From the IMG/VR virus record IMGVR_UViG_3300048134_000195, positions 1 to 47,049 of that record: DNA of 47,049 nucleotides; one strand, written 5' to 3'. This DNA comes from a virus. A program made the position numbers and the translations under genes. Shown in pieces: positions 5,360 to 47,049 of this stretch (within the stretch, counting starts at the first letter, position 1; each line of letters starts with the position of its first letter). The notes below the pieces were generated by a model. It did not search any database. It saw only the letters and a list, made by a program, of their open reading frames with translations, and was not told the DNA's origin.

Positions 5360-6118
5360 GTGCCAGCACTTCTGGTCCTCGATCATCTCGAGGGCTACCC
5401 GATAGCCATGTCCATCGCCACCAACTCCTCAGACTACTGGCTCCGCAGTCAGACGTACGACTGCGAGCACGACCCCTGCGAGGGCGTTCGCACCCGCCGG
5501 GGGTCTGTTGAAGGGTCGTACTGTAGCCACGAATGCTACCTCCGAGCGCAAGGACAGGCGCTCCTCAACATCATCAAGCACGACCACCGCTACTGCTATA
5601 CGTGCTTCCGCCGCCTGAAAGACGTCCACCGGCCGGACGACGAGTGGCAGGGACGGAAAACGCAGCCCGTGGAGATCGCGCTCGACCAGGGCGCCGAATT
5701 CGCCTCGGGGCCCGACGGCTCGCTCGAACTGGATGCGTCCGAGTGCGTCTACCGGAAGGCAATCGACCCGGAGTCGGTCATCGGCTTCCAGCACTGGAGC
5801 GAACACGCAACCCGCGGTGAGGTCCGCGTCGAACGCCCCGACGGCGTCCCGGATGACACGCGCATGGGGCTCGTCTGTACGTGCGGGCAGACGAATCACG
5901 CGGACCGCGACGACATCATCCAGGGCGCGGACATCAAGGCCGTCGTTGAACACCTCCATGCGACACTCGAAACACTCCGCGAGGAAGGCCAACACTCTAC
6001 CCACGTGGACTTTGACGCGCTCGTCGACGTCCTGTACGCGCAGTACCAGCACGACACTGGGTATGACTTCCCGGTCGCGGTTGGCATCGCCGCTGAAGCT
6101 GGTGATCGTGATGCCTGA
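5360..6118 (+). CDS. Cys/His-rich protein with an N-terminal FCS-like zinc finger (252 aa; alternative ATG 5408)
   Basis: Track ORF (GTG start). Motifs YDCEHDPCEG..SYCSHECYLR, YCYTCF and CTCG. Confidence 0.6.
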   Translation: MPALLVLDHLEGYPIAMSIATNSSDYWLRSQTYDCEHDPCEGVRTRRGSVEGSYCSHECYLRAQGQALLNIIKHDHRYCYTCFRRLKDVHRPDDEWQGRKTQPVEIALDQGAEFASGPDGSLELDASECVYRKAIDPESVIGFQHWSEHATRGEVRVERPDGVPDDTRMGLVCTCGQTNHADRDDIIQGADIKAVVEHLHATLETLREEGQHSTHVDFDALVDVLYAQYQHDTGYDFPVAVGIAAEAGDRDA

Positions 6119-6299
6119 GCTCTCGGAGGAGACGATCGTCACCGCACGGATCGCCGGCAAGGTGGTCCCCGGCATGGTCGTCGACACGGCGGGCACCGAA
6201 GCGGCGTACGGCCCCGGCCCGGAGGATGTCCTGATCGTCGAGGTGCCGGGTGCGGGGACGTACCGCGTCCGGGAGTCCGACATCACGGCACCGACGTAG
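6111..6299 (+). CDS. Hypothetical small protein (62 aa)
   Basis: Internal ATG 6111 of track ORF 5733..6299, 8-nt overlap with the upstream stop. Sequence MPELSEETIVTARIAGKVVPG... Confidence 0.5.
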   Translation: MPELSEETIVTARIAGKVVPGMVVDTAGTEAAYGPGPEDVLIVEVPGAGTYRVRESDITAPT

Positions 6300-6324
6300 C
6301 CCAGTCCCGATGACCTGATGATAC

Positions 6325-6540
6325 CGCCCAGTGTGGGCGTCGAGGCGAGGGACTGTATCGAGCAAGGAACGTCTCCGGCTGTCGATAGGGACCAACGACG
6401 GCATACACGTCGGCCGCCCCACGTGGGGAGACTGCCTCGTGGATAACACGAGTCCTCCCCATGTGGGGGCGGCCATTTGCGTCTGTTCTCCCAGCCTCGC
6501 CCCCACCCAGGGTGGGCGTCGACGTCACGGTCGAGCGAGG
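6325..6540. repeat. Cluster of GC-rich palindromes and direct repeats in a non-coding gap
   Basis: cgcccagtgtgggcg at 6325-6339. Composite hairpin at 6412-6474. cgcccccacccagggtgggcg at 6498-6518. Direct repeat gtgggcgtcga at 6333-6343 and 6512-6522. Confidence 0.8.
6412..6474. repeat. Long composite hairpin: 19-bp outer stem (one bulge, one G-T) enclosing a 6-bp stem with a GATAA loop
   Basis: ggccgccccacgtggggag (6412-6430) pairs with ctccccatgtgggggcggcc (6455-6474). Inner stem is ctcgtg (6436-6441) with cacgag (6447-6452). Confidence 0.8.
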
Positions 6541-6607
6541 CCCTCTGAATCATGCAGTACTCGCATCGATTCGCCAGCTACCGGCGCTGTCTGGCTATGA
6601 ATGTATC

Positions 6608-6931
6608 ATGAGCACCGACTCAGTCAATCGCCCCTGGTACTGCCGGGACGACCTGGTCGACGAGTATCGTACGACGCTGACAACTGGCGGTGAGAAGTTG
6701 CCGATGCTCAAAGCCCTCAAAATCCTTCGCGCGATCATCGTCAACCTCGGTCTCCTGGCACTCTCCGGGTACGCCATCCAGCAAGGCGGCCACCCCACCG
6801 TCCTCGGGTTCGTCTCGATCATGGTGATCGGCGCGTACAACGGCCTCGAGCTTGGCGACTATCTCGCACTCGTCCAGGCGTACCAAGAAGTCCAAGCCCT
6901 CGATCCCAGCGATGGAGGCGACGACGAATGA
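6608..6931 (+). CDS. Membrane protein, two predicted TM helices (107 aa)
   Basis: Internal ATG 6608 of track ORF 6461..6931. Hydrophobic stretches ILRAIIVNLGLLALSGYAI and TVLGFVSIMVIGAYNGL. Confidence 0.6.
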   Translation: MSTDSVNRPWYCRDDLVDEYRTTLTTGGEKLPMLKALKILRAIIVNLGLLALSGYAIQQGGHPTVLGFVSIMVIGAYNGLELGDYLALVQAYQEVQALDPSDGGDDE

Positions 6932-19174: not shown

Positions 19175-20470
19175 ATGACAGTTTCACCCGTTGAGATTGA
19201 CGTTTCGGCAGAGACCGGAGCGCTCCCCCAGGAGACCTTCACCGACGTCGCCGTCGTCGGCACCGCAACCGCGGCGCCGGCTGGCGCGGCGTTCGGTGAG
19301 GTCAACCGATACCAGAGTGCTTCTGAAGTAGCAGCCGACTACGGTGACGGCAGCGACGTCCACGTGGCGTCCCAGGCCGTCGAGGAGATGGGCGCGGACG
19401 CGTGGTACGTCCTCGTCCTCGAACAGACCGAGGTCGTCGACGAAGCCGTCGACGACGGTACGACCGTCGCGAACACGCCCATCCACGGCGACGCCGGCGT
19501 CACCGCCGACGCTCGCGACGTCGTCTACTCGACCGAAGACCCCGTCAGCCAACCCGACACTGGAGAAGTCGCAGTGAACACGGCGACCGGCGAGGTCGTC
19601 ACCGACGACGGCACCGCCGCGACGTTGACGTACTCGTACGTCGACTGGAGCGGCCTCGAGGAACTCGAGTACCGTGGAGTGAACCGCGCACACCTCGCGG
19701 ACACGCGCGCTGGCCGCGAGCACATCGGCGACTACGACGAGTTCGTCTCCTGGGCTTCATCGGCCCAGATTGGTGTGCCGCTCGCGATCAAGAACCCGAG
19801 CACGTTCCCTAGCGATGAGGAGGGAATGGCCGTCGCGCATGAGGTCGCCGGCTACGTCCCTGGCGGGAACGTCCTCGGCGTCGTCGCGAAGACGAGCGCC
19901 GACGTCGGCGCAACCATCCTCGGGCAGCTCGCCGTCAACGAAGCGTGGTTCGACCCGTACTTCGACAACGATGGCTACCCGTTCGCCATCGACTCGATTC
20001 CGGGCCGCCTCGTCGGCGACCCGGGGACAACCGGGACGTTCGTCGGCGGTGACGCTGACGGAAACGGCCCGGTGAACGTCGTCATCTCCGTCGACGGCGT
20101 GAACGTGCTCTGGCGGAGCGTGTCGACTGCTGGTGCGGGTAGCTCCTACCAGTACTTCGACGTCCAGATGACGGAGTACTTCGCGGTCTCCGTGATCGAG
20201 AACACGCTGACATCGCTCGAACTCGAGCAGGACCGCATCCCGTTCACCGGCGACGGCCAGTCGATGATCGAGGGCGCGATCGTCGATGCGCTCGCGGACT
20301 ACACGGGCGGCCCGGACGACCCGTTCGCGGAGACGGACATCCACGTGCCCGAGCCCGAGGACCTCTCTGAGGACGACCGCGCGAATCGGAACTGGACGGG
20401 CATCAAGCTCGACTATCGGCTCACCGGGAGCGCGCAGACGTTCAGCGTCGAGATGACGCTGAGCGCCTAA
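19175..20470 (+). CDS. Contractile tail sheath protein (431 aa)
   Basis: Track ORF. Size and order: sheath, tube, chaperone, tape measure. Confidence 0.7.
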   Translation: MTVSPVEIDVSAETGALPQETFTDVAVVGTATAAPAGAAFGEVNRYQSASEVAADYGDGSDVHVASQAVEEMGADAWYVLVLEQTEVVDEAVDDGTTVANTPIHGDAGVTADARDVVYSTEDPVSQPDTGEVAVNTATGEVVTDDGTAATLTYSYVDWSGLEELEYRGVNRAHLADTRAGREHIGDYDEFVSWASSAQIGVPLAIKNPSTFPSDEEGMAVAHEVAGYVPGGNVLGVVAKTSADVGATILGQLAVNEAWFDPYFDNDGYPFAIDSIPGRLVGDPGTTGTFVGGDADGNGPVNVVISVDGVNVLWRSVSTAGAGSSYQYFDVQMTEYFAVSVIENTLTSLELEQDRIPFTGDGQSMIEGAIVDALADYTGGPDDPFAETDIHVPEPEDLSEDDRANRNWTGIKLDYRLTGSAQTFSVEMTLSA

Positions 20471-29874: not shown

Positions 29875-30135
29875 ATGCGACCGCCGGCCAAACTATCCCG
29901 ACGACAGTTACTGGCCACCGCAACTGCGTCCCTGGCCCCAATTACAGGCTGTTCCAGAAACGGCAGTTCGCCGACATCGGCAGAGACGCCAACTGACTCG
30001 GCTGATACCCTCGTTATCGAGACAAAGGAGACTCACACAGCAACTGGAGAGCAGTCCTACACAGCAGTCGAATGGCATGACGAAGGAGCCCTCGTCGTGG
30101 AGCAGAGCGGAAGTTTAGAACTTACTGAGCAATAA
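29875..30135 (+). CDS. Secreted Tat lipoprotein (86 aa precursor)
   Basis: MRPPAKLSRRQLLATATASLAPITGC has a twin-arginine motif, a hydrophobic core and a lipobox ITG/C. The track lists 29869..30135 with a TTG start. Confidence 0.65.
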   Translation: MRPPAKLSRRQLLATATASLAPITGCSRNGSSPTSAETPTDSADTLVIETKETHTATGEQSYTAVEWHDEGALVVEQSGSLELTEQ

Positions 30136-30136
30136 C

Positions 30137-31267
30137 ATGGCTAAGATTAAACTCATCAACGAGAACGGCGTCATCAAAGGTATCGACCCAGAAACGGGTG
30201 AAGAGGTTCCGGTGGAGTTCGAGGACCTAGAGACTCAATCGGTAAGTACAGAGGAAGCACTAATCGGGAAAACCAATCCCTATCAATACGTCTCCGAGAG
30301 CCACACCACAGTTACTGTTCCCGGAGATTACGATACAATCCAAGAAGCAATCGACGACTGTCCGAAGAATCTCCGCCACGAGTACGTCATTGACGTTGAT
30401 AACGGGGCTTACGACGAGGACTTGGTATTCAGAGGCATCGCGAATCAAGGATATACGGGTGCGGAGGCATCGACCGGCGGGATTGGCACTGATGGAGAAC
30501 ACGGGATCATCCAGATAGTGGGCGACACTACAACGCCATCGAACGTCAAAATAAATTCGGTGACGGCGATCGGATGCACGGGCGTCCAAGCGCCCACCTT
30601 ATGGGGCGTGGAACTCAACGGCGCAAGCCCGCATGTTGACGAGGACACGACCGCGGTCTTCTCAGGGTGTCAACAAGCGTTTCTCGGGGATTGTAACTTC
30701 CGAGGAGGTGCAAATAAAGCGGTTACTGCATATGGCGGCAACCTCCATGTTCGCAATATGGATGTTGGGGCTGATAACTACGATATCGCGCTATATGCAA
30801 AGCGACAGGCCGCAATCCACGAGCGTAACACTTCAGGATCCGTGACGGATAGAGGATACGTCGCCTCTGACGCTTCTTCAATCCATTCTCAGCATGATAG
30901 TAACATTAGTTCTCCCAATCGCAAATATGACCCGGTGAGTGGCTCCTATACGGTTATAGGGCCGCAGGGAATCAACTTCCAAAATGTCCAACTTCTCGGG
31001 GATGCAGGTGGACTAGAAATAAACGACAGGGTGGGGAGTGTCCCGTTCATTCTCCGAGACCTAGAGAACGGTGTGGAACGGTTCCGTGCCGAAGGCAAGG
31101 GGTACGGCAACTCCCACATTGAAAACCTGTCGGGACAGACTGGCGACTTCGACGGGCAGGTGCGGCTTGATGATGGTTCTAACACTCCACACCGAGGCGT
31201 TGAATGTGTCTGGGACGATGTGAATGGTGTTTGGGTTGACCAGACGGACGGCAGTACCTTCACCTAA
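30137..31267 (+). CDS. Right-handed beta-helix (pectate-lyase-like) protein, probable receptor-binding tailspike or depolymerase (376 aa)
   Basis: Track ORF. Repetitive G/N/T/V-rich short-strand pattern (VTAIGCTGVQ, FSGCQQAFLGDCNFRGGANKAVTAYGGNLHVRNMDVG). About 47-50% G+C. Confidence 0.6.
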   Translation: MAKIKLINENGVIKGIDPETGEEVPVEFEDLETQSVSTEEALIGKTNPYQYVSESHTTVTVPGDYDTIQEAIDDCPKNLRHEYVIDVDNGAYDEDLVFRGIANQGYTGAEASTGGIGTDGEHGIIQIVGDTTTPSNVKINSVTAIGCTGVQAPTLWGVELNGASPHVDEDTTAVFSGCQQAFLGDCNFRGGANKAVTAYGGNLHVRNMDVGADNYDIALYAKRQAAIHERNTSGSVTDRGYVASDASSIHSQHDSNISSPNRKYDPVSGSYTVIGPQGINFQNVQLLGDAGGLEINDRVGSVPFILRDLENGVERFRAEGKGYGNSHIENLSGQTGDFDGQVRLDDGSNTPHRGVECVWDDVNGVWVDQTDGSTFT

Positions 31268-31335
31268 TCAGTCCTGATTCTCTTTTAGCGGGTGTCTCAC
31301 CGCCAGCATCCTGAAAGAAACACCCGGCGCCGAGG

Positions 31336-32175
31336 TTAGTGCCGGAGTTGCTGGAGGGCGTCCTCCAGGCGCTCCGGACTCTCCTCGATGTACGCAATCG
31401 CCGTGCTGAACTGACTCCACCCGAATAGGGCTTTCAAATCCATCGCCGAGAGACCACGGGCGGCGTAGTAGCTGGCGGCCGTCGCCCGCAGCGCGTGCGG
31501 GTAGATCTCGTCGACGTCGACGGACTCGGTCTGCCGAGCCATCCGGTCGACGCGCCGGTTCACGACACCACGAGACGCTTCGAATTCATCGTAGTGCGTG
31601 AAGTAGTCCTCAACGGCGAGCGCTGCCCGCGTACTGGCTTCCGCGTACGGGATCTTCCTCGCAGCGTTCACCGTCTTCGGCGACCACATCTGCGCGTAGA
31701 ATGGCTCCGCGTCGACGAATAACTCGTAGACGTGGCCGCCGGGCTCGAGGACGTCGTGCCGCCCCAGGCTCTGGTAGTGGTCGTCGAGCGTGTTTGCCGT
31801 GCGGATGTCCGCCATCTGCTCGGCGGCACCACGGCAGTGCCCACAGATGTCTCGCGTTCGCCCGTCGGTACAGGGTTCGTGTTTCGGGATTTCGATGCGT
31901 TCGTCCTCCCAGTTGACCCAGTCCGCTTTCATGTGCGCGACCTCACCAGGTCGCATGCCGAGGCGGCCGCACGCGAAGAGGACGAGCCGGCACTCCCGAG
32001 CGAAGTAATCATCGTCCATCCGGTAGGTCGCCTGCACCATCTGCTCGAACTGGCGTTCGGTGATGGCGTCCTCCTTGGTGTGACGGACGGCATCGTCGCT
32101 TGCCCAGTCCTTTCCGTGGTCGTCGCCGGTGACGGGCTTACGGCCACGCGGCCGCTGCTGGTCCGACGAGCTCAC
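31336..32175 (-). CDS. int: Tyrosine recombinase / integrase (279 aa) with a Cys-containing insertion
   Basis: Track ORF. Motifs GMRPGE (Arg), HALRATAASY (HxxR) and GWSQFSTAIAYI (Tyr). Insertion is CTDGRTRDICGHC. Confidence 0.85.
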   Translation of the reverse strand: MSSSDQQRPRGRKPVTGDDHGKDWASDDAVRHTKEDAITERQFEQMVQATYRMDDDYFARECRLVLFACGRLGMRPGEVAHMKADWVNWEDERIEIPKHEPCTDGRTRDICGHCRGAAEQMADIRTANTLDDHYQSLGRHDVLEPGGHVYELFVDAEPFYAQMWSPKTVNAARKIPYAEASTRAALAVEDYFTHYDEFEASRGVVNRRVDRMARQTESVDVDEIYPHALRATAASYYAARGLSAMDLKALFGWSQFSTAIAYIEESPERLEDALQQLRH

Positions 32176-32831
32176 GGCTCGCCCGCCTCCATGATCGCTT
32201 CCAGGTATGCGAGGACGTCCGCGACCTCGCCGAGCAGCGGCAGCGGCTCGAGTGTCGACGCGCGCCCCAGCGTCCGGTAGTCGACGAGTCCAGCAGCATC
32301 CAGCCGCGGGACGTGTGTTTCGTGGAGCGCGACGTAGAGACTCTTGACGGCCTCTGTTCCGGGCCGGGTGTCGTGTGTTCTGAGGGTGCCGGTGTCGATG
32401 CCGTGCGCGAGCTCGGGCGTGGTGACGAAGCCGCGTTCGTCGACGTCGGGCTGCCAGTCGTCGAGGACGCGGATGGCAGCGCGCCGCCGGTCGTTCGCGA
32501 GGACGTCCAGGAGCTCGTCGAGCGTGATCTCGAGGCGGGCGCTGTCGGGCGTAGGTGGCCGGCGGCCACTGCCATCAGCGACAGCACTCCCAGTGCCGTC
32601 AGCCGTGGTTTGGTGGACGTAGACGTGCTGGAGGCCGGCGTCGGCGGTGATCTCGCCGCGATCCTCGAGGCGCTGCAGGAGCGCCTGGAGGTGGCTGCGG
32701 GTGATGCTGAATCGGAGTGCGAGCCCCTCGATGGTGGCCGGGTCGTCGAGCCAGTCGAGGTACTCAAGGACTTGCTGTGGGGTTGGTTCGCTAGCGTTAC
32801 CACTCTCTACTGGTATGTTTTCGTGGTCCAT
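32172..32831 (-). CDS. wHTH DNA-binding protein (219 aa)
   Basis: Track ORF with ATGA overlap onto int. LEYLDWLDDPATIEGLALRFSITRSHLQALLQRLEDRGEI and a second HTH-like half. Confidence 0.6.
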   Translation of the reverse strand: MDHENIPVESGNASEPTPQQVLEYLDWLDDPATIEGLALRFSITRSHLQALLQRLEDRGEITADAGLQHVYVHQTTADGTGSAVADGSGRRPPTPDSARLEITLDELLDVLANDRRRAAIRVLDDWQPDVDERGFVTTPELAHGIDTGTLRTHDTRPGTEAVKSLYVALHETHVPRLDAAGLVDYRTLGRASTLEPLPLLGEVADVLAYLEAIMEAGEP

Positions 32832-32945
32832 GCTGGACTGAGGAGCCGGCGCTGAGCGGGCGACCCGCTACTTACGCACTCTTTCTCGAACTCCTCACTC
32901 CACCCGGAGGATACAAACAGACCCCAGCACCACTATTCTCCGCCG

Positions 32946-33950
32946 TCAGTCTGCGGCGTCGCTGCGATGCCAGCCCCACGCAATCGGGGCGGCCATCGCG
33001 ACCGTCGCGACCGGCAGCATCGTCGACGCGCCCAGACTCGGGACGGACCCCGCGATGCCAGCAGCTGCCAGCCCCACAACAGCCCCATACTTCCCCGCCT
33101 TCACTGCCGTCTTCGACTCCGCAGGCGTGAACCGGCCAATCGTTCGGTCACCATTCTCGACGTCCTGGACGTCGTCAGCGAGCGTTTCCACGCGGGCGGC
33201 CATCTGGTCAGCGCCGAGCGCGGACAGCTCTGCAGCGGCGCCCATCGGCGTCGAGGAACTGATCTTTGCGTAGACGTCGTCGGCCGGTGTGGTGTCGGTA
33301 TCCCAGTTGGCACCGTCGAGGAGATCGGCGTCGGCGAAGTCCTGGATGATTTGGTCGTCCGAGGAGATTGCAAGATAGTTTTTCATCGTCGCGTAGTCTT
33401 CCCAGCCGCCGACGGCCATGACGGTCTCCATATTCATGTCGTGGCGGACGAGACAGTTGGTGGCAAAGTATCGGCGGAGGTCGTGTGGCGAGAAGTAGCG
33501 CTCGTAGTCGACGTCGCCTGTTTGTTCGGTGACGAGCGTCCCGATTTTATACGCCCAGTCGTTCATCGTTCTCGAACTGATGCCGACGAGCGGTTCGTCA
33601 TCGGGGATGTGTGTTTCTTCGCGGATTGTTTCGATGCAGTCGATGGTTGCTCGAGTGAGTGGGACTTTGCGATATTTTCCGTTTTCTGTTTTGCCGGTGG
33701 TGTCTTTCCCCCAGACTTCTGCGAATTTGATGTCGGTGTCGAGGTTGGTGTTGACGATGTCGTTGTAGGTGAGGTCGACCATGCCGTCCTTGCGGAGGCC
33801 GCGGCCGCCGAGGCGGGCGAAGAGTTCGGCTTGTTTTGGGTGGCCGTGAATCGAGATTGTTGATGCGATGTCGACGATGAGTTCGAATTCTTCTTGGGTG
33901 GGGAAGAGCGCAGCTTCGTCTTCGTTTTCGAGTTGGCGTTTAGTGGCCAT
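32946..33950 (-). CDS. Second tyrosine recombinase (334 aa) with a ~130-aa C-terminal extension ending in two hydrophobic segments
   Basis: Track ORF. Motifs GGRGLRKDG, HDLRRYFATN and GGWEDYATMKNYL. Tail contains YGAVVGLAAAGIAGSVPSLG and STMLPVATVAMAAPIAWGW. Confidence 0.75.
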   Translation of the reverse strand: MATKRQLENEDEAALFPTQEEFELIVDIASTISIHGHPKQAELFARLGGRGLRKDGMVDLTYNDIVNTNLDTDIKFAEVWGKDTTGKTENGKYRKVPLTRATIDCIETIREETHIPDDEPLVGISSRTMNDWAYKIGTLVTEQTGDVDYERYFSPHDLRRYFATNCLVRHDMNMETVMAVGGWEDYATMKNYLAISSDDQIIQDFADADLLDGANWDTDTTPADDVYAKISSSTPMGAAAELSALGADQMAARVETLADDVQDVENGDRTIGRFTPAESKTAVKAGKYGAVVGLAAAGIAGSVPSLGASTMLPVATVAMAAPIAWGWHRSDAAD

Positions 33951-34022
33951 GGTGTATCCTCGTGTTTTTGTCTGTCTGTTGACTGTTGTGCATGGGTGTG
34001 GTAACGGACGCGTGATTTATAA

Positions 34023-34100
34023 GTCTATTTCGAAAATTCAGACTTCCTCGCTAACCCCGTACTCAGAAACCCTACGTTACTCATAAACCCCTTCCCCAAA
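34023..34100. repeat. Near-palindrome aagtct-atttcgaaaatt-cagactt followed by three AACCC(C)-containing tandem units
   Basis: aagtctatttcgaaaattcagactt at 34021-34045. aaccccgtactcag / aaaccctacgttactcat / aaaccccttcccc at 34053-34095. Confidence 0.6.
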
Positions 34101-34185
34101 CAATCCAGACACATCAAGAAAACACACAACACTACGCACGCGTCCAGTAAACGTATCCACCCCACCAACCAACCAACCTACGACC

Positions 34186-34434
34186 ATGCCCTCGACCAGC
34201 ACCGAAGACCGCATCCTCAGAACAGTCGACGCCCAGACCAGCCCCGCCCAGCCCGACACCGTCCGCCCGGGGACGATCGTGCTGACGCTCGCCGGCAACG
34301 GCTCGATGAACCCCGGCGACGTCCGCCAGGGGATGCAGTCGGCTGTCGACGCCGGTCGACTCGAGCACACCGAGGAGGGGCGTCTTCGCGTTGCGGATGG
34401 CGTCGACGTGCCGGTCCCGGGGAAACCCGCGTGA
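34186..34434 (+). CDS. Hypothetical small protein (82 aa)
   Basis: Track ORF. Acidic/neutral composition, and the only plausible frame in this gap. Confidence 0.45.
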   Translation: MPSTSTEDRILRTVDAQTSPAQPDTVRPGTIVLTLAGNGSMNPGDVRQGMQSAVDAGRLEHTEEGRLRVADGVDVPVPGKPA

Positions 34435-34535
34435 GTAGATAAGGAAATTAATCTCGCCACGCAGCACTATTTTCCCCGGTTCCCGTGATTCCATCCGCTT
34501 CGACGACTCACACCCGTGGTTTGTGCGTCGAGGAA

Positions 34536-34582
34536 CCCGGTTTTCGAGACGTTATCCCTGGGGTCGCACCACGAAAACCGGG
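34536..34582. repeat. 11-bp perfect inverted repeat (cccggttttcg / cgaaaaccggg) with a 25-nt spacer
   Basis: Read directly. It lies in the 254-bp non-coding gap downstream of the par operon. Confidence 0.7.
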
Positions 34583-34688
34583 CCCCACACAGGGAGTAAA
34601 CCGTATACTGCGATAGGAAGTCAGTCTGCAGTTGCCCGGACGGCGCTGCCTCTACCTTCGGAACCTCTCTGGGTGCGATCAGTAAACC

Positions 34689-35081
34689 TCACTCAATCGC
34701 GTAGCCCCATCCCCGCAGGACCTCCGCAATCTCGTCGTCGTGCTCGAGGCCGACCAGCAGCGCAGCCTCGCGCAAGTCCGCCTTCTTCACAGACTCGCCG
34801 AGCAACTGCTCGACGTCACTCTTCCCGGCGCGTTCAGCGTCCACAGTATCGGCTTGTAGATGGAGTTGCACCGTCTTCTCACGCCCGTCCGTAATGCTAT
34901 TTCGGCGATGAATCCATGGCAGCCGCGTCGTCGTGTCACCGCCAGCATCCTGCACCGACCCACCCGTCGACTCAGGAGTCTGGTCGCGGTCGACGTCGCG
35001 ACGATCGTCGGCGTCCTCTTCCTCCTCAAAACTATCATCATCCCAGTCGTCGTCCGCAGCGCCGCTCTTGAATCCAGCCAT
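34689..35081 (-). CDS. Acidic protein with a C-terminal RHH-like domain, ParG-like partner of ParA (130 aa)
   Basis: Track ORF with ATGA overlap onto parA. C-terminus is ..LPWIHRRNS..VQLHLQ..ADLREAALLVGLEH..LRGWGYAIE. Confidence 0.55.
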   Translation of the reverse strand: MAGFKSGAADDDWDDDSFEEEEDADDRRDVDRDQTPESTGGSVQDAGGDTTTRLPWIHRRNSITDGREKTVQLHLQADTVDAERAGKSDVEQLLGESVKKADLREAALLVGLEHDDEIAEVLRGWGYAIE

Positions 35082-35968
35082 CAGGCGGTCACCTCGGTTT
35101 CATCCTCGTCGTCGAGCGCACCGGGCTCAGGCGGGGATGGTGCCTCAATCCCGCCAACGCGCTCGATGAACCGCGCGATTTCGTCGAACTGCGCGAGCGT
35201 ATCCACTTCGTAGTCCCGGCGCCGGTCGCGGTGTTCACGAACGTACTGATACGCCGAGCACTGTTGCCGCCAGCACCCCTCCAGCAGGGCCGTCCGGTCC
35301 CCGATCACCGCGGGGACGTCGTACGGGATCTCCTTGAGGAGGTCCTGCTGATCGCTCGTTCCCTTGACCCCGACGGGGACGGCGCCGAGGACACCGACGT
35401 CGATGTTCAATTCGTCCGCGAAGTTCCGCGCGAGGTCCTCCAGCCCCTCAACTGCTGCTTGTCCTTTCGCGCTCGGTTCGACTGGGAGGAGGAGGTTTCG
35501 CGTGGCGTAGATCGCGTTGTAGAGGTGTGCCCCCTCCGTTGCGGGCGGGTCGACGATGACGACGTCGTACTCGCTGGGGACGTCGGCTTCTTGGAGGACG
35601 CGCCGGAGCTGGGCGTGGACGTTGTATGCTTCGCCGAAGTCCTCTGCTTTCTGCTTCTCGCGGCGGAGGTGGTCTTCGAGGTCCGACAGCGCGTTGTGCT
35701 CGGGGACAATGTCGACGCCCTCGGCGGTCCGAATGAGGTCGTGGAACGGACCGCGTGGTGAGTCGACCATGTGGCGGACGATGTTGTCGGCTGAGGAGTT
35801 CTCGCGGTCGTCGTCGACGTCGAAGAGGCGGCTGAGGTTTCCGTCCTGGGGGTCGAGCGGAACCACGAGGACGTCGAGGCCGGCTCGGCGATGCGCGACG
35901 GCGAGGTTCGCAGTAAGCGTCGTTTTGCCGACGCCACCTGCCTCCGAGTACACGGTGTACGCGAGCAT
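35081..35968 (-). CDS. parA: ParA/Soj-type partition ATPase (295 aa)
   Basis: Track ORF. Deviant Walker A VYSEAGGVGKTTLTANLA and Walker B-like YDVVIVDPPA. Confidence 0.85.
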   Translation of the reverse strand: MLAYTVYSEAGGVGKTTLTANLAVAHRRAGLDVLVVPLDPQDGNLSRLFDVDDDRENSSADNIVRHMVDSPRGPFHDLIRTAEGVDIVPEHNALSDLEDHLRREKQKAEDFGEAYNVHAQLRRVLQEADVPSEYDVVIVDPPATEGAHLYNAIYATRNLLLPVEPSAKGQAAVEGLEDLARNFADELNIDVGVLGAVPVGVKGTSDQQDLLKEIPYDVPAVIGDRTALLEGCWRQQCSAYQYVREHRDRRRDYEVDTLAQFDEIARFIERVGGIEAPSPPEPGALDDEDETEVTA

Positions 35969-36074: not shown

Positions 36075-36854
36075 TCAATTCTGAGACTCTGATTCTGGCT
36101 GGTATCCCCACTGAACAAGCTGATCTACGACAAGTCCGGGACGTTCTATTGCCGCGAGGATGGCAGCTTCCCGAAGATCTGCGCGATAAACATCTTCATT
36201 CAGTTGGGTTTCGATCTGGTTCTGGAATTCCACGAATTTGCGCGCGGTTTCGTCTTGGAGGTGCAGTTGCTTCGTGACACTCCGATCCGTGACAGGGGAC
36301 TCACGCTGATAGATCCAAGGGAGTGAGACGTCTTCGGTGGTCGTCTCGTGTTTGTCATCTGGGTCGCCCGTCGCGTAGCTGACGAGTTCCTCCCAGTGTT
36401 CGGTAAGGCCAGTCAGGCCGATCCGGCTGAGATTTCCATCGATTACATCAAAGCTAAACTCGCCAGTGGCGTGAGTGGTGGCGCCGATGACGGGGCCGTA
36501 TCCAGATGCGTTGTCAAGTAGCGACTCGTTTTCGTCGAACAGATAGTCCGCAGCGACAAGGATTGGGTGGCAGTCTGCAGCTGCGTAGTCTCGGAGTTGC
36601 GATGCCGCTCCGATGGAGTCCGCGAGCGTCGTCTTCACCTCGAACGCGTATTTCGCAGAGGGCTCAACGCTGAACTCGTTTTCTTTCATCAGCATTACGT
36701 CGGCTCGGCGCTCCCTGCCGTCGACGGTGACCGGCTTCTCTTCGTGGACAACGACGTCGGTCGCACTATCCTGGAACTGGTTGGTGTACTCGCTAAGCGT
36801 ATGCAGAAGTGCTCGTTTCAGGACGTCGTGGTCCATTGTATCGAGGTCACCCAT
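36075..36854 (-). CDS. PD-(D/E)xK-like nuclease domain fused to a C-terminal RHH-like domain (259 aa)
   Basis: Track ORF. Candidate catalytic residues in RRADVMLM and YAFEVKT. The C-terminal ~75 aa are alignable with the C-terminus of 34689..35081. Confidence 0.55.
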   Translation of the reverse strand: MGDLDTMDHDVLKRALLHTLSEYTNQFQDSATDVVVHEEKPVTVDGRERRADVMLMKENEFSVEPSAKYAFEVKTTLADSIGAASQLRDYAAADCHPILVAADYLFDENESLLDNASGYGPVIGATTHATGEFSFDVIDGNLSRIGLTGLTEHWEELVSYATGDPDDKHETTTEDVSLPWIYQRESPVTDRSVTKQLHLQDETARKFVEFQNQIETQLNEDVYRADLREAAILAAIERPGLVVDQLVQWGYQPESESQN

Positions 36855-37470
36855 CGAGGAGTTCCTCCCGCGCCTCCTGGACGCGCTGGTACTCGGCCTC
36901 GTCCCCGCCCTGGTCGGGATGCGTCTCCTTCACGCGCTCCCGATACGCCGCCCGAATCTTCTCGGGACTGGCGTCGCGATCGACACCGAGGATAGTGTGG
37001 GCGGGGGGCTCGCCGGCGACGACTGCGTCGGTGTCCCCGTCGGCAGGTGGGAGGCGTGCGTTTGCGAACTCTGACTCTCCGGTCGCGACGGGACGATTCT
37101 CCATCCGGCGCTTCTCACGAAGGTACAGTCCGGCCTGCCGGACATTATCGCGGAGCCGGGTGTGAGTGTCGCAGGCGACGGCGTAGTCGGCGTCGTCCAT
37201 TCGCCAGCGCAGCACGAACCCAGGGTCATCTGGGTTCGCACGGGCGTATGGTCGCTGGTCGGTTTTGCGCTGCTGGGCGTCGAACTCGTAGCGGTATCTG
37301 TCCGCGCCGATGCGCTCGAGCTCCTTCTCCAAGTCGTCGAAGGCGTCCGAGAGAGACACCGAGAAATTGTTGTTCGGTTCTCGGTGCTCTGCGCTCGTTC
37401 GGTCAAAGCCGGCTGGCCAGTCGATACGCGAGTTCGAACGGGTAGATGAGGTCGTTGAGTTACTCGCCAT
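36847..37470 (-). CDS. J-domain (DnaJ-like) protein (207 aa)
   Basis: Internal ATG 37470 of track ORF 36847..37578. C-terminal ILGVDRDASPEKIRAAYRERVKETHPDQGGDEAEYQRVQEAREELL contains the HPD motif. Confidence 0.8.
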   Translation of the reverse strand: MASNSTTSSTRSNSRIDWPAGFDRTSAEHREPNNNFSVSLSDAFDDLEKELERIGADRYRYEFDAQQRKTDQRPYARANPDDPGFVLRWRMDDADYAVACDTHTRLRDNVRQAGLYLREKRRMENRPVATGESEFANARLPPADGDTDAVVAGEPPAHTILGVDRDASPEKIRAAYRERVKETHPDQGGDEAEYQRVQEAREELLDG

Positions 37471-37945
37471 CGAGGATCTCCTCCATGCGGTCGAGGGCGT
37501 CCTCGAGGTTGTCTCGGTTGAGGTTCTTCTCCGCACGCTGGGCGTCCGCGAGCGCGTCCCGCAGCTCATCAACGTCAATGCTCTGTGATTCGGCTTCGTG
37601 GAGTTCGCGTTCGAGGCGTTGCTTTTCGACGCGGAGCTCTTCGAGCTCGTCGCGTGCCTGCTCGAGTTTGTGCTCGAGCGCGTCGGCGTCGGCGTCGTCG
37701 GTGGTGCCGAGGTCGAGGCGGTCGCGTTGTTCGCTGGGGATGTTCTCGGGTTGGAGTTCGTAGACGCCGCGGCCGACGTTGGTGACGTAGTCGGCGCTCT
37801 CCATCTGTTGGAGGCGTTGGGTGATCCACTGGCGTGAGACGTCGAGTTGTTCGGCGAGGTTTGAGGGGACGTTGCGGCCGGTGGCGAGCGTTTCGAGGAT
37901 GCGCTCGTCGATGTCTTTCAGCTCGTGTGCCATTTGCTGGTGCAT
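37460..37945 (-). CDS. wHTH plus coiled-coil protein, repressor-like (161 aa)
   Basis: Track ORF. ERILETLATGRNVPSNLAEQLDVSRQWITQRLQQMESADYV is followed by heptad-rich LEQARDELEELRVEKQRLERELHEAE. Confidence 0.7.
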   Translation of the reverse strand: MHQQMAHELKDIDERILETLATGRNVPSNLAEQLDVSRQWITQRLQQMESADYVTNVGRGVYELQPENIPSEQRDRLDLGTTDDADADALEHKLEQARDELEELRVEKQRLERELHEAESQSIDVDELRDALADAQRAEKNLNRDNLEDALDRMEEILDGE

Positions 37946-38132
37946 GGATTCATCGCCACTTGTCTATTGTCATCGACACCGTAAATAGTTGACCACTGTC
38001 CGGTACAATACACTTGACAACAGTAAACTATAAGGGCATACGGCGTGTACCCTGAAGTAGAGCCCGAGGGACGCCACACGAGAGAAAGTGGCCGCGTGCC
38101 ATAACACGCGACCTCGGGTCACCGAACGACCC
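37946..38132. promoter_or_regulatory. Divergent promoter/operator (switch-like) region between the minus-strand island and the rightward early operon
   Basis: Low-G+C gap. TATA-like taaatag (37982-37988) and actataag (38027-38034). CACTTGTC-type motifs at 37957, 37993 and 38011. Confidence 0.55.
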
Positions 38133-45985: not shown

Positions 45986-47049
45986 CCACACTCCTCTCGA
46001 CTGGCTCGTCCCGTCCGATGAGTGGGACCGGTTCTGCCGCTTCGTCGAGGGAGAGGACGGGAGTCTCGACGGCTATCTCGGCGATGCAGCGGAACAGGCG
46101 ATGGCCGAGTACGCTCATGTCGACGAGTACGCCGGCATCGAGGAGCGGGTCGACAAGCTCGTCACGGCTGCCGGTCGCCGTCCCGAGGACGGTTTCAAAG
46201 AAAAAAATTCGGGGTTGCTGGAGGACTGGGCAGACGCGGACAAGACTCGCGTCACCGTCAAAGTCGAGCGTGAAGTGAAGGCGAAGTTCCGCGAAGTCGC
46301 GAGTGACAGCGACCACGCGTTCGGCGTGGAATTCGCGCGCGCCATTCGCACGTACCGCGACGGCGGTCGTCGCGACCGTGTCGAACGGAAGCTCGACCGC
46401 ATCCTTGACGACGCCGAACGCCTCCTCAGCGACCTGCAGCCCGACGACGAGGAGACCGAGGGTTCCTCAGAGTCGCTGTCGTTGGCGGAGCGGAAGACCA
46501 TCGCCGTCTGCGACGAGCTCGGCGAGCAGTTCACCGATGACGAACTGGTCGACGCCATCGAGCGTGTCGCCGAGGTCTCCAGCGAACCCTCGATCGAGAA
46601 GTACCGCGGGCTGGTCGTTGACCGACTCGGGATGGAGCGTCACCCAGGCGAACCGCATCTGTGGGTTCCCCATGATGTCGTGGACCAGCTCGCACCTGGC
46701 CAGCCTCGCGTAATCCGGCAGTCAGTCGAACGCCTCGATCGCGAGGAACGCGTTCGCCGCGTTCAACTGGCAGTCGGTCGTGCTGCCGCTGAACGCGACT
46801 CTGACATCGTCCGCGTGCAGACACCCGTAATTCAGGAAGAAGTCCTCGGCGGCGAAGTCACGCGGTCGAGCACGTTGAGTCTGATGCGCGCGGCGCAGTT
46901 GTCCGCGGGCATCGAGGTTGATGACGACTCCTCGCCCGCAGCGCTTGTCGTTGACGTCCAGATGATCGAAGAGGTGGATTCCGAATTGGCAGCGACGATA
47001 CTCAGGTACCACGATAAGGCCGAGGAGGGCTTGCTCGGGTCGCCGACGT
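45978..47049 (+). CDS. 5' part of the junction-spanning gene (409 aa in total on the circular map: 45978..46922 then 1..285)
   Basis: Manual codon-by-codon reading shows ATG 45978 and no stop up to the window end. The frame continues at position 1. It is absent from the ORF track because it has no stop in the window. Contains an RHH-like KTRVTVKVEREVKAKFREV segment. Confidence 0.75.
   Translation, partial: MYDHTPLDWLVPSDEWDRFCRFVEGEDGSLDGYLGDAAEQAMAEYAHVDEYAGIEERVDKLVTAAGRRPEDGFKEKNSGLLEDWADADKTRVTVKVEREVKAKFREVASDSDHAFGVEFARAIRTYRDGGRRDRVERKLDRILDDAERLLSDLQPDDEETEGSSESLSLAERKTIAVCDELGEQFTDDELVDAIERVAEVSSEPSIEKYRGLVVDRLGMERHPGEPHLWVPHDVVDQLAPGQPRVIRQSVERLDREERVRRVQLAVGRAAAERDSDIVRVQTPVIQEEVLGGEVTRSSTLSLMRAAQLSAGIEVDDDSSPAALVVDVQMIEEVDSELAATILRYHDKAEEGLLGSPT
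46193..46210. repeat. 18-bp AT-rich inverted repeat, right arm (tttcaaagaaaaaaattc), inside the junction-spanning gene
   Basis: Perfect reverse complement of 45734..45751. Encodes ..GFKEKNSG... Confidence 0.95.
46923..47049. repeat. Terminal direct repeat copy 2 (127 bp, identical to 1..127)
   Basis: Same comparison. The preceding bases ..gaggttgat have no counterpart because the window starts at the repeat. Confidence 0.97.

Follow-up and report, generated by a model that had tools for sequence, protein, structure and literature searches.

The window analyzed here, the whole 47,049-nucleotide (nt) stretch of the viral record IMGVR_UViG_3300048134_000195 (IMG/VR), carries on its minus strand a gene for a protein of 207 amino acids (aa), in which a conserved N-terminal domain (N-domain) is followed by a linker and a C-terminal J domain. 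We suggest that this protein is a class C J-protein that probably brings the DnaK of its host to a target that bacteria and haloarchaea have in common; that this target is a nucleic acid or the ribosome is a tentative proposal, possible but doubtful. In such a scheme, the J domain would dock on the bacterial-type DnaK of the host and trigger ATP hydrolysis, and DnaK would then clamp onto whatever had been bound by the N-domain, which would serve as a targeting or client-selecting module. A preliminary description of the same DNA, made from the sequence alone, had also assumed that the protein acts via DnaK, on the premise that haloarchaea possess this chaperone. The premise holds, as all Halobacteriales carry a bacterial-type DnaK/DnaJ/GrpE system, which they obtained from bacteria (PMC3564930).

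The J domain was recognized by sequence and by predicted structure. Residues 158–206 matched the Pfam family PF00226 (DnaJ; profile positions 3–55 of 63) with 40.4 bits, compared to a gathering cut-off of 27.8 (E value 3.1e-10). In an AlphaFold2 model of the full-length protein (mean predicted local distance difference test score [pLDDT] 82.9), helices comprising residues 157–161, 169–183 and 191–206 were predicted with pLDDT values of about 90–95, and the HPD tripeptide sits in the loop between the latter two. Foldseek matched the full-length model to solved J domains with a probability of 1.00. One of the superpositions, on DnaJ bound to DnaK (5nro_B), gave a root-mean-square deviation (rmsd) of 1.5 Å and a target-normalized template-modeling (TM) score of 0.78, and that on 2och an rmsd of 1.8 Å. 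In addition, searches of PDB sequences with family profiles returned J domains only. In 69 haloarchaeal homologues, H184 and D186 do not vary, and P185 is conserved in at least 90% of the sequences; among 110 representatives of 180–260 aa, 85 bear HPD within their C-terminal 75 residues and 94 bear H[PGAS]D. Based on its conserved sequence, the J domain is probably functional. The C-terminal J domain with HPD noticed in the preliminary description is thus borne out by profile score, conservation and superposition; described there as a textbook domain of 60 aa, it measures about 51 aa and lacks helix IV, and so is not fully textbook.

The window protein contains no G/F (glycine/phenylalanine) region, no zinc-finger domain and no C-terminal client-binding domains. 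The NCBIfam DnaJ models matched only about 45 residues of its J domain, with 33 bits compared to cut-offs of at least 338. The C-terminal position of the J domain, together with scores so far below the cut-offs of the DnaJ equivalogs, classifies the protein, as judged by its domain composition, as a class C (type III) J-protein and not as a member of class A or B.

The N-domain is conserved across very different hosts. In 88 diverse archaeal and bacterial members of the family, residues W18, P19, R24, T25, R30, P74, D82, P83, G84, C100, D101, N109, R111 and R121 are at least 80% conserved, giving the motif series WP..RT..R..DPG..CD..NxR..R; in the same members, the J-domain residues conserved to this degree are L161, HPD, GG and A200. 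The window protein has all of the hallmarks that we defined from the family alignments (WP, RT, DPG, CD, NxR, R, LP and HPD-GG). As N-domain residues are invariant across bacteria and archaea, the domain should bind something that all of these hosts possess. It could be duplex nucleic acid, RNA or the ribosome, or else the DnaK system as such; a virus-specific protein would be an unlikely ligand.

The preliminary description had found the N-terminal region not assignable by eye, and profile searches gave no known family either. Neither the window protein nor bacterial representatives had a Pfam, NCBIfam or PADLOC match in this region, 18 diverse N-domains had no Pfam match at E ≤10 (including no dsrm or S30AE signal), and a profile of the N-domain had no match among PDB sequences. 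As Foldseek results for the full-length model were swamped by J domains, residues 14–128 were modeled separately (pLDDT 87.5; predicted TM score 0.82). This model comprises an extended N-terminal segment, a helix (residues 40–54), three strands (58–63, 85–91 and 94–100) and a second helix (106–124). It had no PDB or BFVD match at E ≤0.001. The best PDB matches were double-stranded RNA-binding domains (dsRBDs) and ribosome hibernation factors (E 0.05–0.3, TM ≤0.44, rmsd 5–11 Å), and the best BFVD match was a phage S30EA protein (E 0.009, TM 0.35), none of them significant. dsRBDs and RaiA/HPF/pY share with the N-domain an α-β-β-β-α topology, possibly with an extra N-terminal strand; at the level of the model, we take this likeness as shared α-β3-α topology and not as evidence of homology.

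The conserved N-domain residues cluster at the β1-β2 loop and at the start of the last helix, and it is at these two elements that dsRBDs contact RNA. Moreover, the isoelectric point (pI) of the N-domain is 5.7 (median 6.6 in 27 homologues), compared to 4.0–4.6 for most proteins of the genome, and lies near the values of the integrase and Orc1/Cdc6 (about 5.3). This less acidic character may be taken as a weak hint at nucleic-acid binding. Two enzymatic readings of the N-domain were rejected: a cysteine protease built around the invariant C100, since the domain has no conserved histidine, and a nuclease, since no recognizable motif or fold was found. The N-domain also occurs in other arrangements, in fusions with zinc ribbons (among proteins P0152, P0162 and P0137 of our collection) and in one 469-aa member with a C-terminal DUF4326, and is therefore a mobile module.

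The linker between the two domains is predicted with low confidence (pLDDT below 50 for residues 126–152), yet no other stretch is as well conserved among the haloarchaeal proteins as its segment TGESEFANARLP. E134, L140 and P141 are invariant in the 69 haloarchaeal sequences, and L140-P141 is at least 80% conserved in the 88 diverse representatives. The bacterial form of the linker reads (F/Y)xG(F/Y)xALP, as compared to EFANARLP in the window protein, so that LP and a preceding aromatic residue are kept. Judging from this pattern, the F..LP motif could be a docking peptide that binds the substrate cleft of DnaK, the adjoining J domain or a partner.

The two-domain protein belongs to a large family. 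The match to phrog_9210, a family of unknown function, spans the full length of the protein (E 2.3e-61; residues 11–206 on profile positions 5–201 of 204). A tblastn search of 50,697 phage records (E ≤1e-3) yielded 79 matching records, 70 of which cover at least 80% of the protein, including viruses of Haloarcula, Halorubrum, Mycobacterium, Microbacterium, Gordonia, Synechococcus and Caulobacter; megablast with the J region found no match in the phage collection. The closest relatives among phages are gp5 of HCTV-2 ('DnaJ-like protein'; 46% identity) and ORF5 of BJ1 (40%), both over 92% of the protein. Relatives with 25–30% identity are encoded by Mycobacterium, Microbacterium, Gordonia ('DnaJ-like chaperonin'), Synechococcus and Microcystis phages and by Caulobacter phage Sansa ('molecular chaperone'); the latter annotation is also given to cyanophage members. 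Plasmid carriers include haloarchaeal plasmids of 40–130 kb and plasmids of Nostoc and Tolypothrix. A search with residues 1–148 found 263 haloarchaeal proteins, almost all of about 200 aa and equipped with a J domain. In addition, a profile of 27 N-domains matched 1,699 of 1.84 billion cluster representatives (clusters at 50% identity) at E ≤0.001 and 228 at E ≤1e-10, most of the 1,699 being 190–215 aa long. The taxonomic spread given here is that seen in the phage and plasmid collections.

The kind of protein is already known. The likeness of BJ1 ORF5 (annotated as 'J domain-containing protein') to DnaJ was pointed out in 2007 (PMC2194725), HCTV-2 gp5 carries a similar annotation, and further members are annotated in many phages, so that the novelty of a viral J-protein implied by the preliminary description was overstated and the window adds one ordinary member. 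As far as we searched, it is the N-domain that is undescribed in libraries and literature, together with its spread and its J-less relatives.

The features of the window are collected in Table 1. The open reading frame (ORF) and the peptides quoted from it in the preliminary description were found as given there. Its ATG lies at 37470–37468 and its TGA at 36849–36847. The automatic gene call in our protein collection is a 170-aa product (P0002), in which the conserved WP..RT segment is missing. Two findings speak for the start at 37470: the WP motif seen across the family (W18 P19) is encoded upstream of the start chosen for the 170-aa product, and a homologue with 97% identity (P0001) agrees with the 207-aa product in its N-terminus. 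By this comparison, the start codon in the public annotation is probably wrong.

Table 1. Positions in the window of the J-protein gene, its domains and motifs, and other features.
Feature	Position	Strand	Details and basis
J-domain protein, coding sequence	36847..37470	(-)	207 aa + stop; ORF, translation, phrog_9210 match
J domain	36850..37002	(-)	residues 157–207; helices I–III, helix IV absent
HPD tripeptide H184 P185 D186	36913..36921	(-)	plus strand gtcgggatg; reverse complement CAT CCC GAC
Conserved linear motif TGESEFANARLP	37048..37083	(-)	residues 130–141, within the low-confidence linker 126–156
N-terminal conserved domain	37096..37431	(-)	residues 14–125; AlphaFold2 model, family-wide conserved residues
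Upstream winged-helix + coiled-coil protein	37460..37945	(-)	161 aa; weak winged helix-turn-helix matches
ORF259	36075..36854	(-)	downstream of the J gene; ORF list
ParA	35081..35968	(-)	partition module downstream; AAA_31, CbiA, phrog_164
ORF130	34689..35081	(-)	partition module downstream, with ParA
Divergent intergenic region	37946..38087		AT-richer, TATA-like elements on both strands; between the winged-helix/J operon and the rightward operon
phiH-like structural module	8927–30000
Recombinase region	31260–34627		two tyrosine recombinase genes (31336–32175, 32946–33950); DUF7344 gene (32172–32831)

A leftward operon runs from a gene for a winged helix-turn-helix (wHTH) protein through the J gene, its second cistron, to ORF259 and, after a gap of 106 nt, to ParA and ORF130. 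The wHTH gene overlaps the start of the J gene by 11 nt and its product shows weak matches to HVO_A0261_N and HTH_24 as well as to phrog_2440 ('transcriptional regulator', E 8e-11). The start of ORF259 overlaps the stop of the J gene by 8 nt. ORF259 has no family match in Pfam, NCBIfam and PHROG scans; the preliminary description had called it a nuclease, and its N-terminal D..EVK pattern resembles PD-(D/E)xK by eye, but no profile supports this assignment. The last 89 aa of ORF259 and the C-terminus of ORF130 are paralogous (40% identity, E 1e-16), and the common domain is possibly a partition adaptor or centromere-binding domain, to judge from this sequence relationship. ParA itself matches phrog_164 ('ParA-like partition protein', E 4e-30), AAA_31 and CbiA. 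From the divergent intergenic region upstream of the wHTH gene, a rightward operon leads to Orc1/Cdc6; by its layout, this region is likely a control region of the lysis-lysogeny type. The second-cistron position of the J gene in an operon opposite that of Orc1/Cdc6 makes it probable that the protein is produced early, while the element is being carried, or in both situations; it would then adapt DnaK to the needs of the element.

These neighbors had been proposed as the clients of the protein: it would hand the wHTH protein, ORF259 or the Orc1/Cdc6 or ParA complexes over to DnaK, as in the DnaJ/DnaK-dependent activation of plasmid initiators. The overlaps of the J gene with both of its neighbors are in line with such a role. 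A small DNA-binding protein is often encoded directly upstream of the J gene, and regulators of the HTH type are located upstream, adjacent or nearly so, in BJ1 (ORF6), Gordonia phage Barb (gp89), Sansa (gp072), phiT46-1 (WhiB) and locus L006. ParA is encoded nearby in the window, in locus L008 and on pHTUR05, and the authors of the BJ1 study guessed that ORF5 has a role in DNA replication (PMC2194725). However, the genes flanking the J gene are not conserved across the 13 elements with a fused N-domain and J domain whose contexts we examined. The flanks encode a methyltransferase and an integrase in locus L006 and Kamaru, single-stranded DNA-binding protein (SSB) in Sansa, conjugation genes in locus L010 and ParA in locus L008 and on pHTUR05, and RecT/Bet, exonuclease, RuvC and WhiB are found in Malachai, Judebell, Ssp-JY39 and phiT46-1. 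The upstream small proteins of six elements neither align with each other nor share a common family, and their adjacency probably reflects only a position near the start of the early or regulatory operon. ORF259 has no counterpart beside other family members; a 259-aa protein near the homologue in locus L008 was considered as one and rejected, as it is unrelated.

The same two-domain protein occurs in haloviruses, plasmids, an element of the conjugative type, and actinobacterial, cyanobacterial and Caulobacter phages. Its carriers have entirely different replication and partition machineries, and the bacterial homologues adjoin RecT/Bet, exonuclease, RuvC, SSB, integrase or methyltransferase genes in hosts whose replication proteins are unrelated to Orc1/MCM. 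As neighbors and replication/partition systems vary while the N-domain is conserved, the latter does not appear to be tuned to the repressor-like wHTH protein, ORF259 or Orc1/ParA, and a domain that retains invariant residues in bacteria and archaea alike is not expected to bind such different partners. We therefore regard a virus-specific client, be it an operon neighbor or a replication/partition complex, as unlikely.

A further view of the N-domain comes from a clade of J-less proteins of 123–141 aa, which consist of the N-domain only. On plasmids pCBA1112-01 of Haloplanus rubicundus and p117 of Halorubrum sp. BOL3-1, the J-less gene is clustered with genes for a 1,145-aa tubulin-like protein, a transglutaminase-like protein and a long GrpE; the Haloplanus cluster also contains Hsp70 and vWA genes, and the Halorubrum locus stops at the end of the record. 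In about five of ten J-less contexts, genes for giant Tubulin_2 proteins and/or vWA and FHA/zinc-ribbon proteins adjoin; in the remaining contexts, nothing of this kind was seen. The occurrence of J-less copies beside Hsp70 and GrpE ties the N-domain to Hsp70 machines even where no J domain is fused to it, albeit in a small sample. Genes found in the islands (L016, NZ_CP031147.1 18157–29882, as well as L017, L024, L027 and L030) include those for giant Tubulin_2, vWA, FHA/zinc-ribbon, kinase, PP2C and transglutaminase-like proteins. By analogy, the J-less islands look like an uncharacterized system of the conflict type, tubulin/Hsp70/GrpE/vWA neighborhoods having been predicted to be conflict systems (PMC7159879).

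The window protein might accordingly be a device for host takeover or counter-defense, which would redirect or occupy DnaK, as the phage protein Rki does in E. coli, or disturb Hsp70- or DnaJ-dependent immunity by means of an N-domain borrowed from chaperone-centered conflict systems. The predicted conflict neighborhoods of its J-less relatives, with kinase and phosphatase genes, GrpE in two of them and Hsp70 on the Haloplanus plasmid, fit this idea. Moreover, Rki is toxic via DnaK (PMC3486835), host DnaJ is reported to mediate phage sensing by bNACHT25 (PMC12169576), and many elements have the J gene at the beginning of an early or regulatory operon. On the other hand, PADLOC gave no match for a J-less homologue, and none for the J-protein or its neighbors apart from generic HTH matches, half of the J-less contexts are devoid of such an island, and the J gene of the window lies among maintenance genes and not among obvious anti-defense genes. 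Takeover or counter-defense therefore seems rather unlikely to us. A broader conjecture, which we put forward with low confidence, is that the N-domain is an undescribed module of Hsp70-centered systems, fused to the J domain in mobile elements of bacteria and haloarchaea and encoded on its own in haloarchaeal tubulin/vWA islands, in some cases next to a dedicated Hsp70 and GrpE. Such a module might tether Hsp70 to nucleic acids or ribosomes, or it might be used by both sides in a chaperone-based conflict between hosts and mobile elements; in the latter case, the window protein would act as a counter-measure or as a tool for hijacking and not as a housekeeping helper.

Several observations weigh against a class C J-protein that delivers DnaK to a shared target. 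The protein ends one residue after helix III. About 15% of the full-length representatives have no HPD, BJ1 ORF5 (5971–6621) has HGD instead, and in two representatives a double zinc ribbon (CPxCG repeats) takes the place of the J domain; these sequence differences indicate that the J domain is dispensable in some lineages. GrpE adjoins the J-less gene in two of ten contexts, and Hsp70 was seen beside it only on the Haloplanus plasmid. The basis for the timing of expression is gene order, binding to nucleic acids or ribosomes is a lead from modeling because the fold matches are not significant, and our literature searches returned no functional study of any family member. Some of these points would also fit a vestigial J domain, with the N-domain alone functioning as an enzyme or binding protein and DnaK being irrelevant: stand-alone N-domain proteins exist, some fused members have lost HPD or exchanged the J domain for a zinc ribbon, helix IV is missing, and the invariant C100-D101 and N109 could form an active or binding site together with several arginines. 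Yet HPD and the helix II/III signature are clearly conserved, both in the haloarchaeal clade and in the majority of family members, the Pfam score of the window protein exceeds the threshold, and no catalytic fold or motif was recognized in the N-domain. A vestigial J domain is thus very improbable, and we favor recruitment of host DnaK to a target shared by bacteria and haloarchaea.

The genomic setting of the gene is that of a temperate virus. Positions 1–127 and 46923–47049 are an exact 127-nt direct repeat, so that the window represents a complete genome of 46,922 bp, either circular or circularly permuted. Its genes include those for portal, head-morphogenesis, sheath, baseplate and tape-measure proteins, and the sheath protein (19175–20470) shares 73% identity with hp67 of Halobacterium phage phiH (52% with its counterpart in ChaoS9 and 42% in phiCh1). 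The label 'virus-encoded' given to the J-protein is supported by the terminal repeat together with structural genes related to those of phiH. The non-structural arm carries the two tyrosine recombinases, ParA, the J gene and the Orc1/Cdc6 gene, and we classify the virus as a temperate phiH-like myovirus. None of phiH, ChaoS9 and phiCh1 is among the matches of the J-protein, so that the early arm of the genome is mosaic. The integrase region (31260–34627) shows 94% DNA identity to Halobacterium salinarum plasmid NZ_CP146628.1, and on sequence grounds the host is probably Halobacterium. The GC content dips to 0.57 at 30001–32000, compared to about 0.65 elsewhere, around an ORF at 30137–31267, which has a weak pectinesterase-like match only, and the first integrase gene; the dip may mark a recently acquired host-range or integration cassette.

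Among haloarchaeal tailed viruses, HCTV-2 gp5 and BJ1 ORF5 resemble the window protein in their two-domain architecture over the full length, in the hallmark motifs and in their membership of phrog_9210. The layout of BJ1 is that of the window, with a wHTH gene followed by the J gene and, in divergent orientation, small ORFs and Cdc6. In HCTV-2, the neighbors of the J gene are unlike those in the window, and both viruses belong to families (Saparoviridae, Graaviviridae) that differ from the phiH-like myovirus structural module seen here. The homologues from bacterial phages (e.g., phiT46-1 gp68, Judebell, Barb gp88, Ssp-JY39 and Sansa gp074) have the N-domain, LP linker and C-terminal J domain arranged as in the window protein, to which they are 25–30% identical over about 90% of the length, and share with it W18, P19, R24, C100, D101, N109, R111, R121, HPD and GG. 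They lie in early, recombination or lysogeny regions and serve in bacterial hosts; their annotations rest on the J domain alone, and their N-domain has been left undescribed. The family, with at least 1,699 clusters at 50% identity, crosses the boundary between bacteria and archaea, apparently following the bacterial-type DnaK acquired by haloarchaea. Identification of the N-domain ligand would show for what mobile elements mainly need Hsp70, be it the start of replication, the folding of early proteins or immune evasion, and would provide a first functional handle on the use of chaperones by archaeal viruses.

The preliminary description had also drawn a comparison with phage Rki and with polyomavirus T antigens, which is apt inasmuch as all are virus-encoded class C J-proteins (PMC3486835). 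Rki, the product of gene 057w of the T4-like phage RB43, works via host DnaK (PMC3486835) and stabilizes sigma-32. According to its description, the J domain of Rki precedes a C-terminal region without database matches (PMC3486835), an order that is reversed in the window protein. It is the only experimentally studied phage J-protein in the literature searched, and RB43-type phages are not among the tblastn matches at E ≤1e-3 in the 50,697 phage records. To our knowledge, haloarchaea lack sigma-32. The large and small T antigens of polyomaviruses link host Hsp70 with viral replication and with control of the host; weak sequence matches of the J domain to T antigens (1gh6_A and 2pf4_E) were seen, but these proteins come from eukaryotic viruses, carry their J domain at the N-terminus and are otherwise composed of domains unrelated to those of the window protein. 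Cellular DnaJ (class A) and CbpA (class B) have a J domain with HPD, as does the window protein, and the DnaJ/DnaK-mediated remodeling of λ P-DnaB and of P1 RepA is the classic precedent for mobile elements that need Hsp70.

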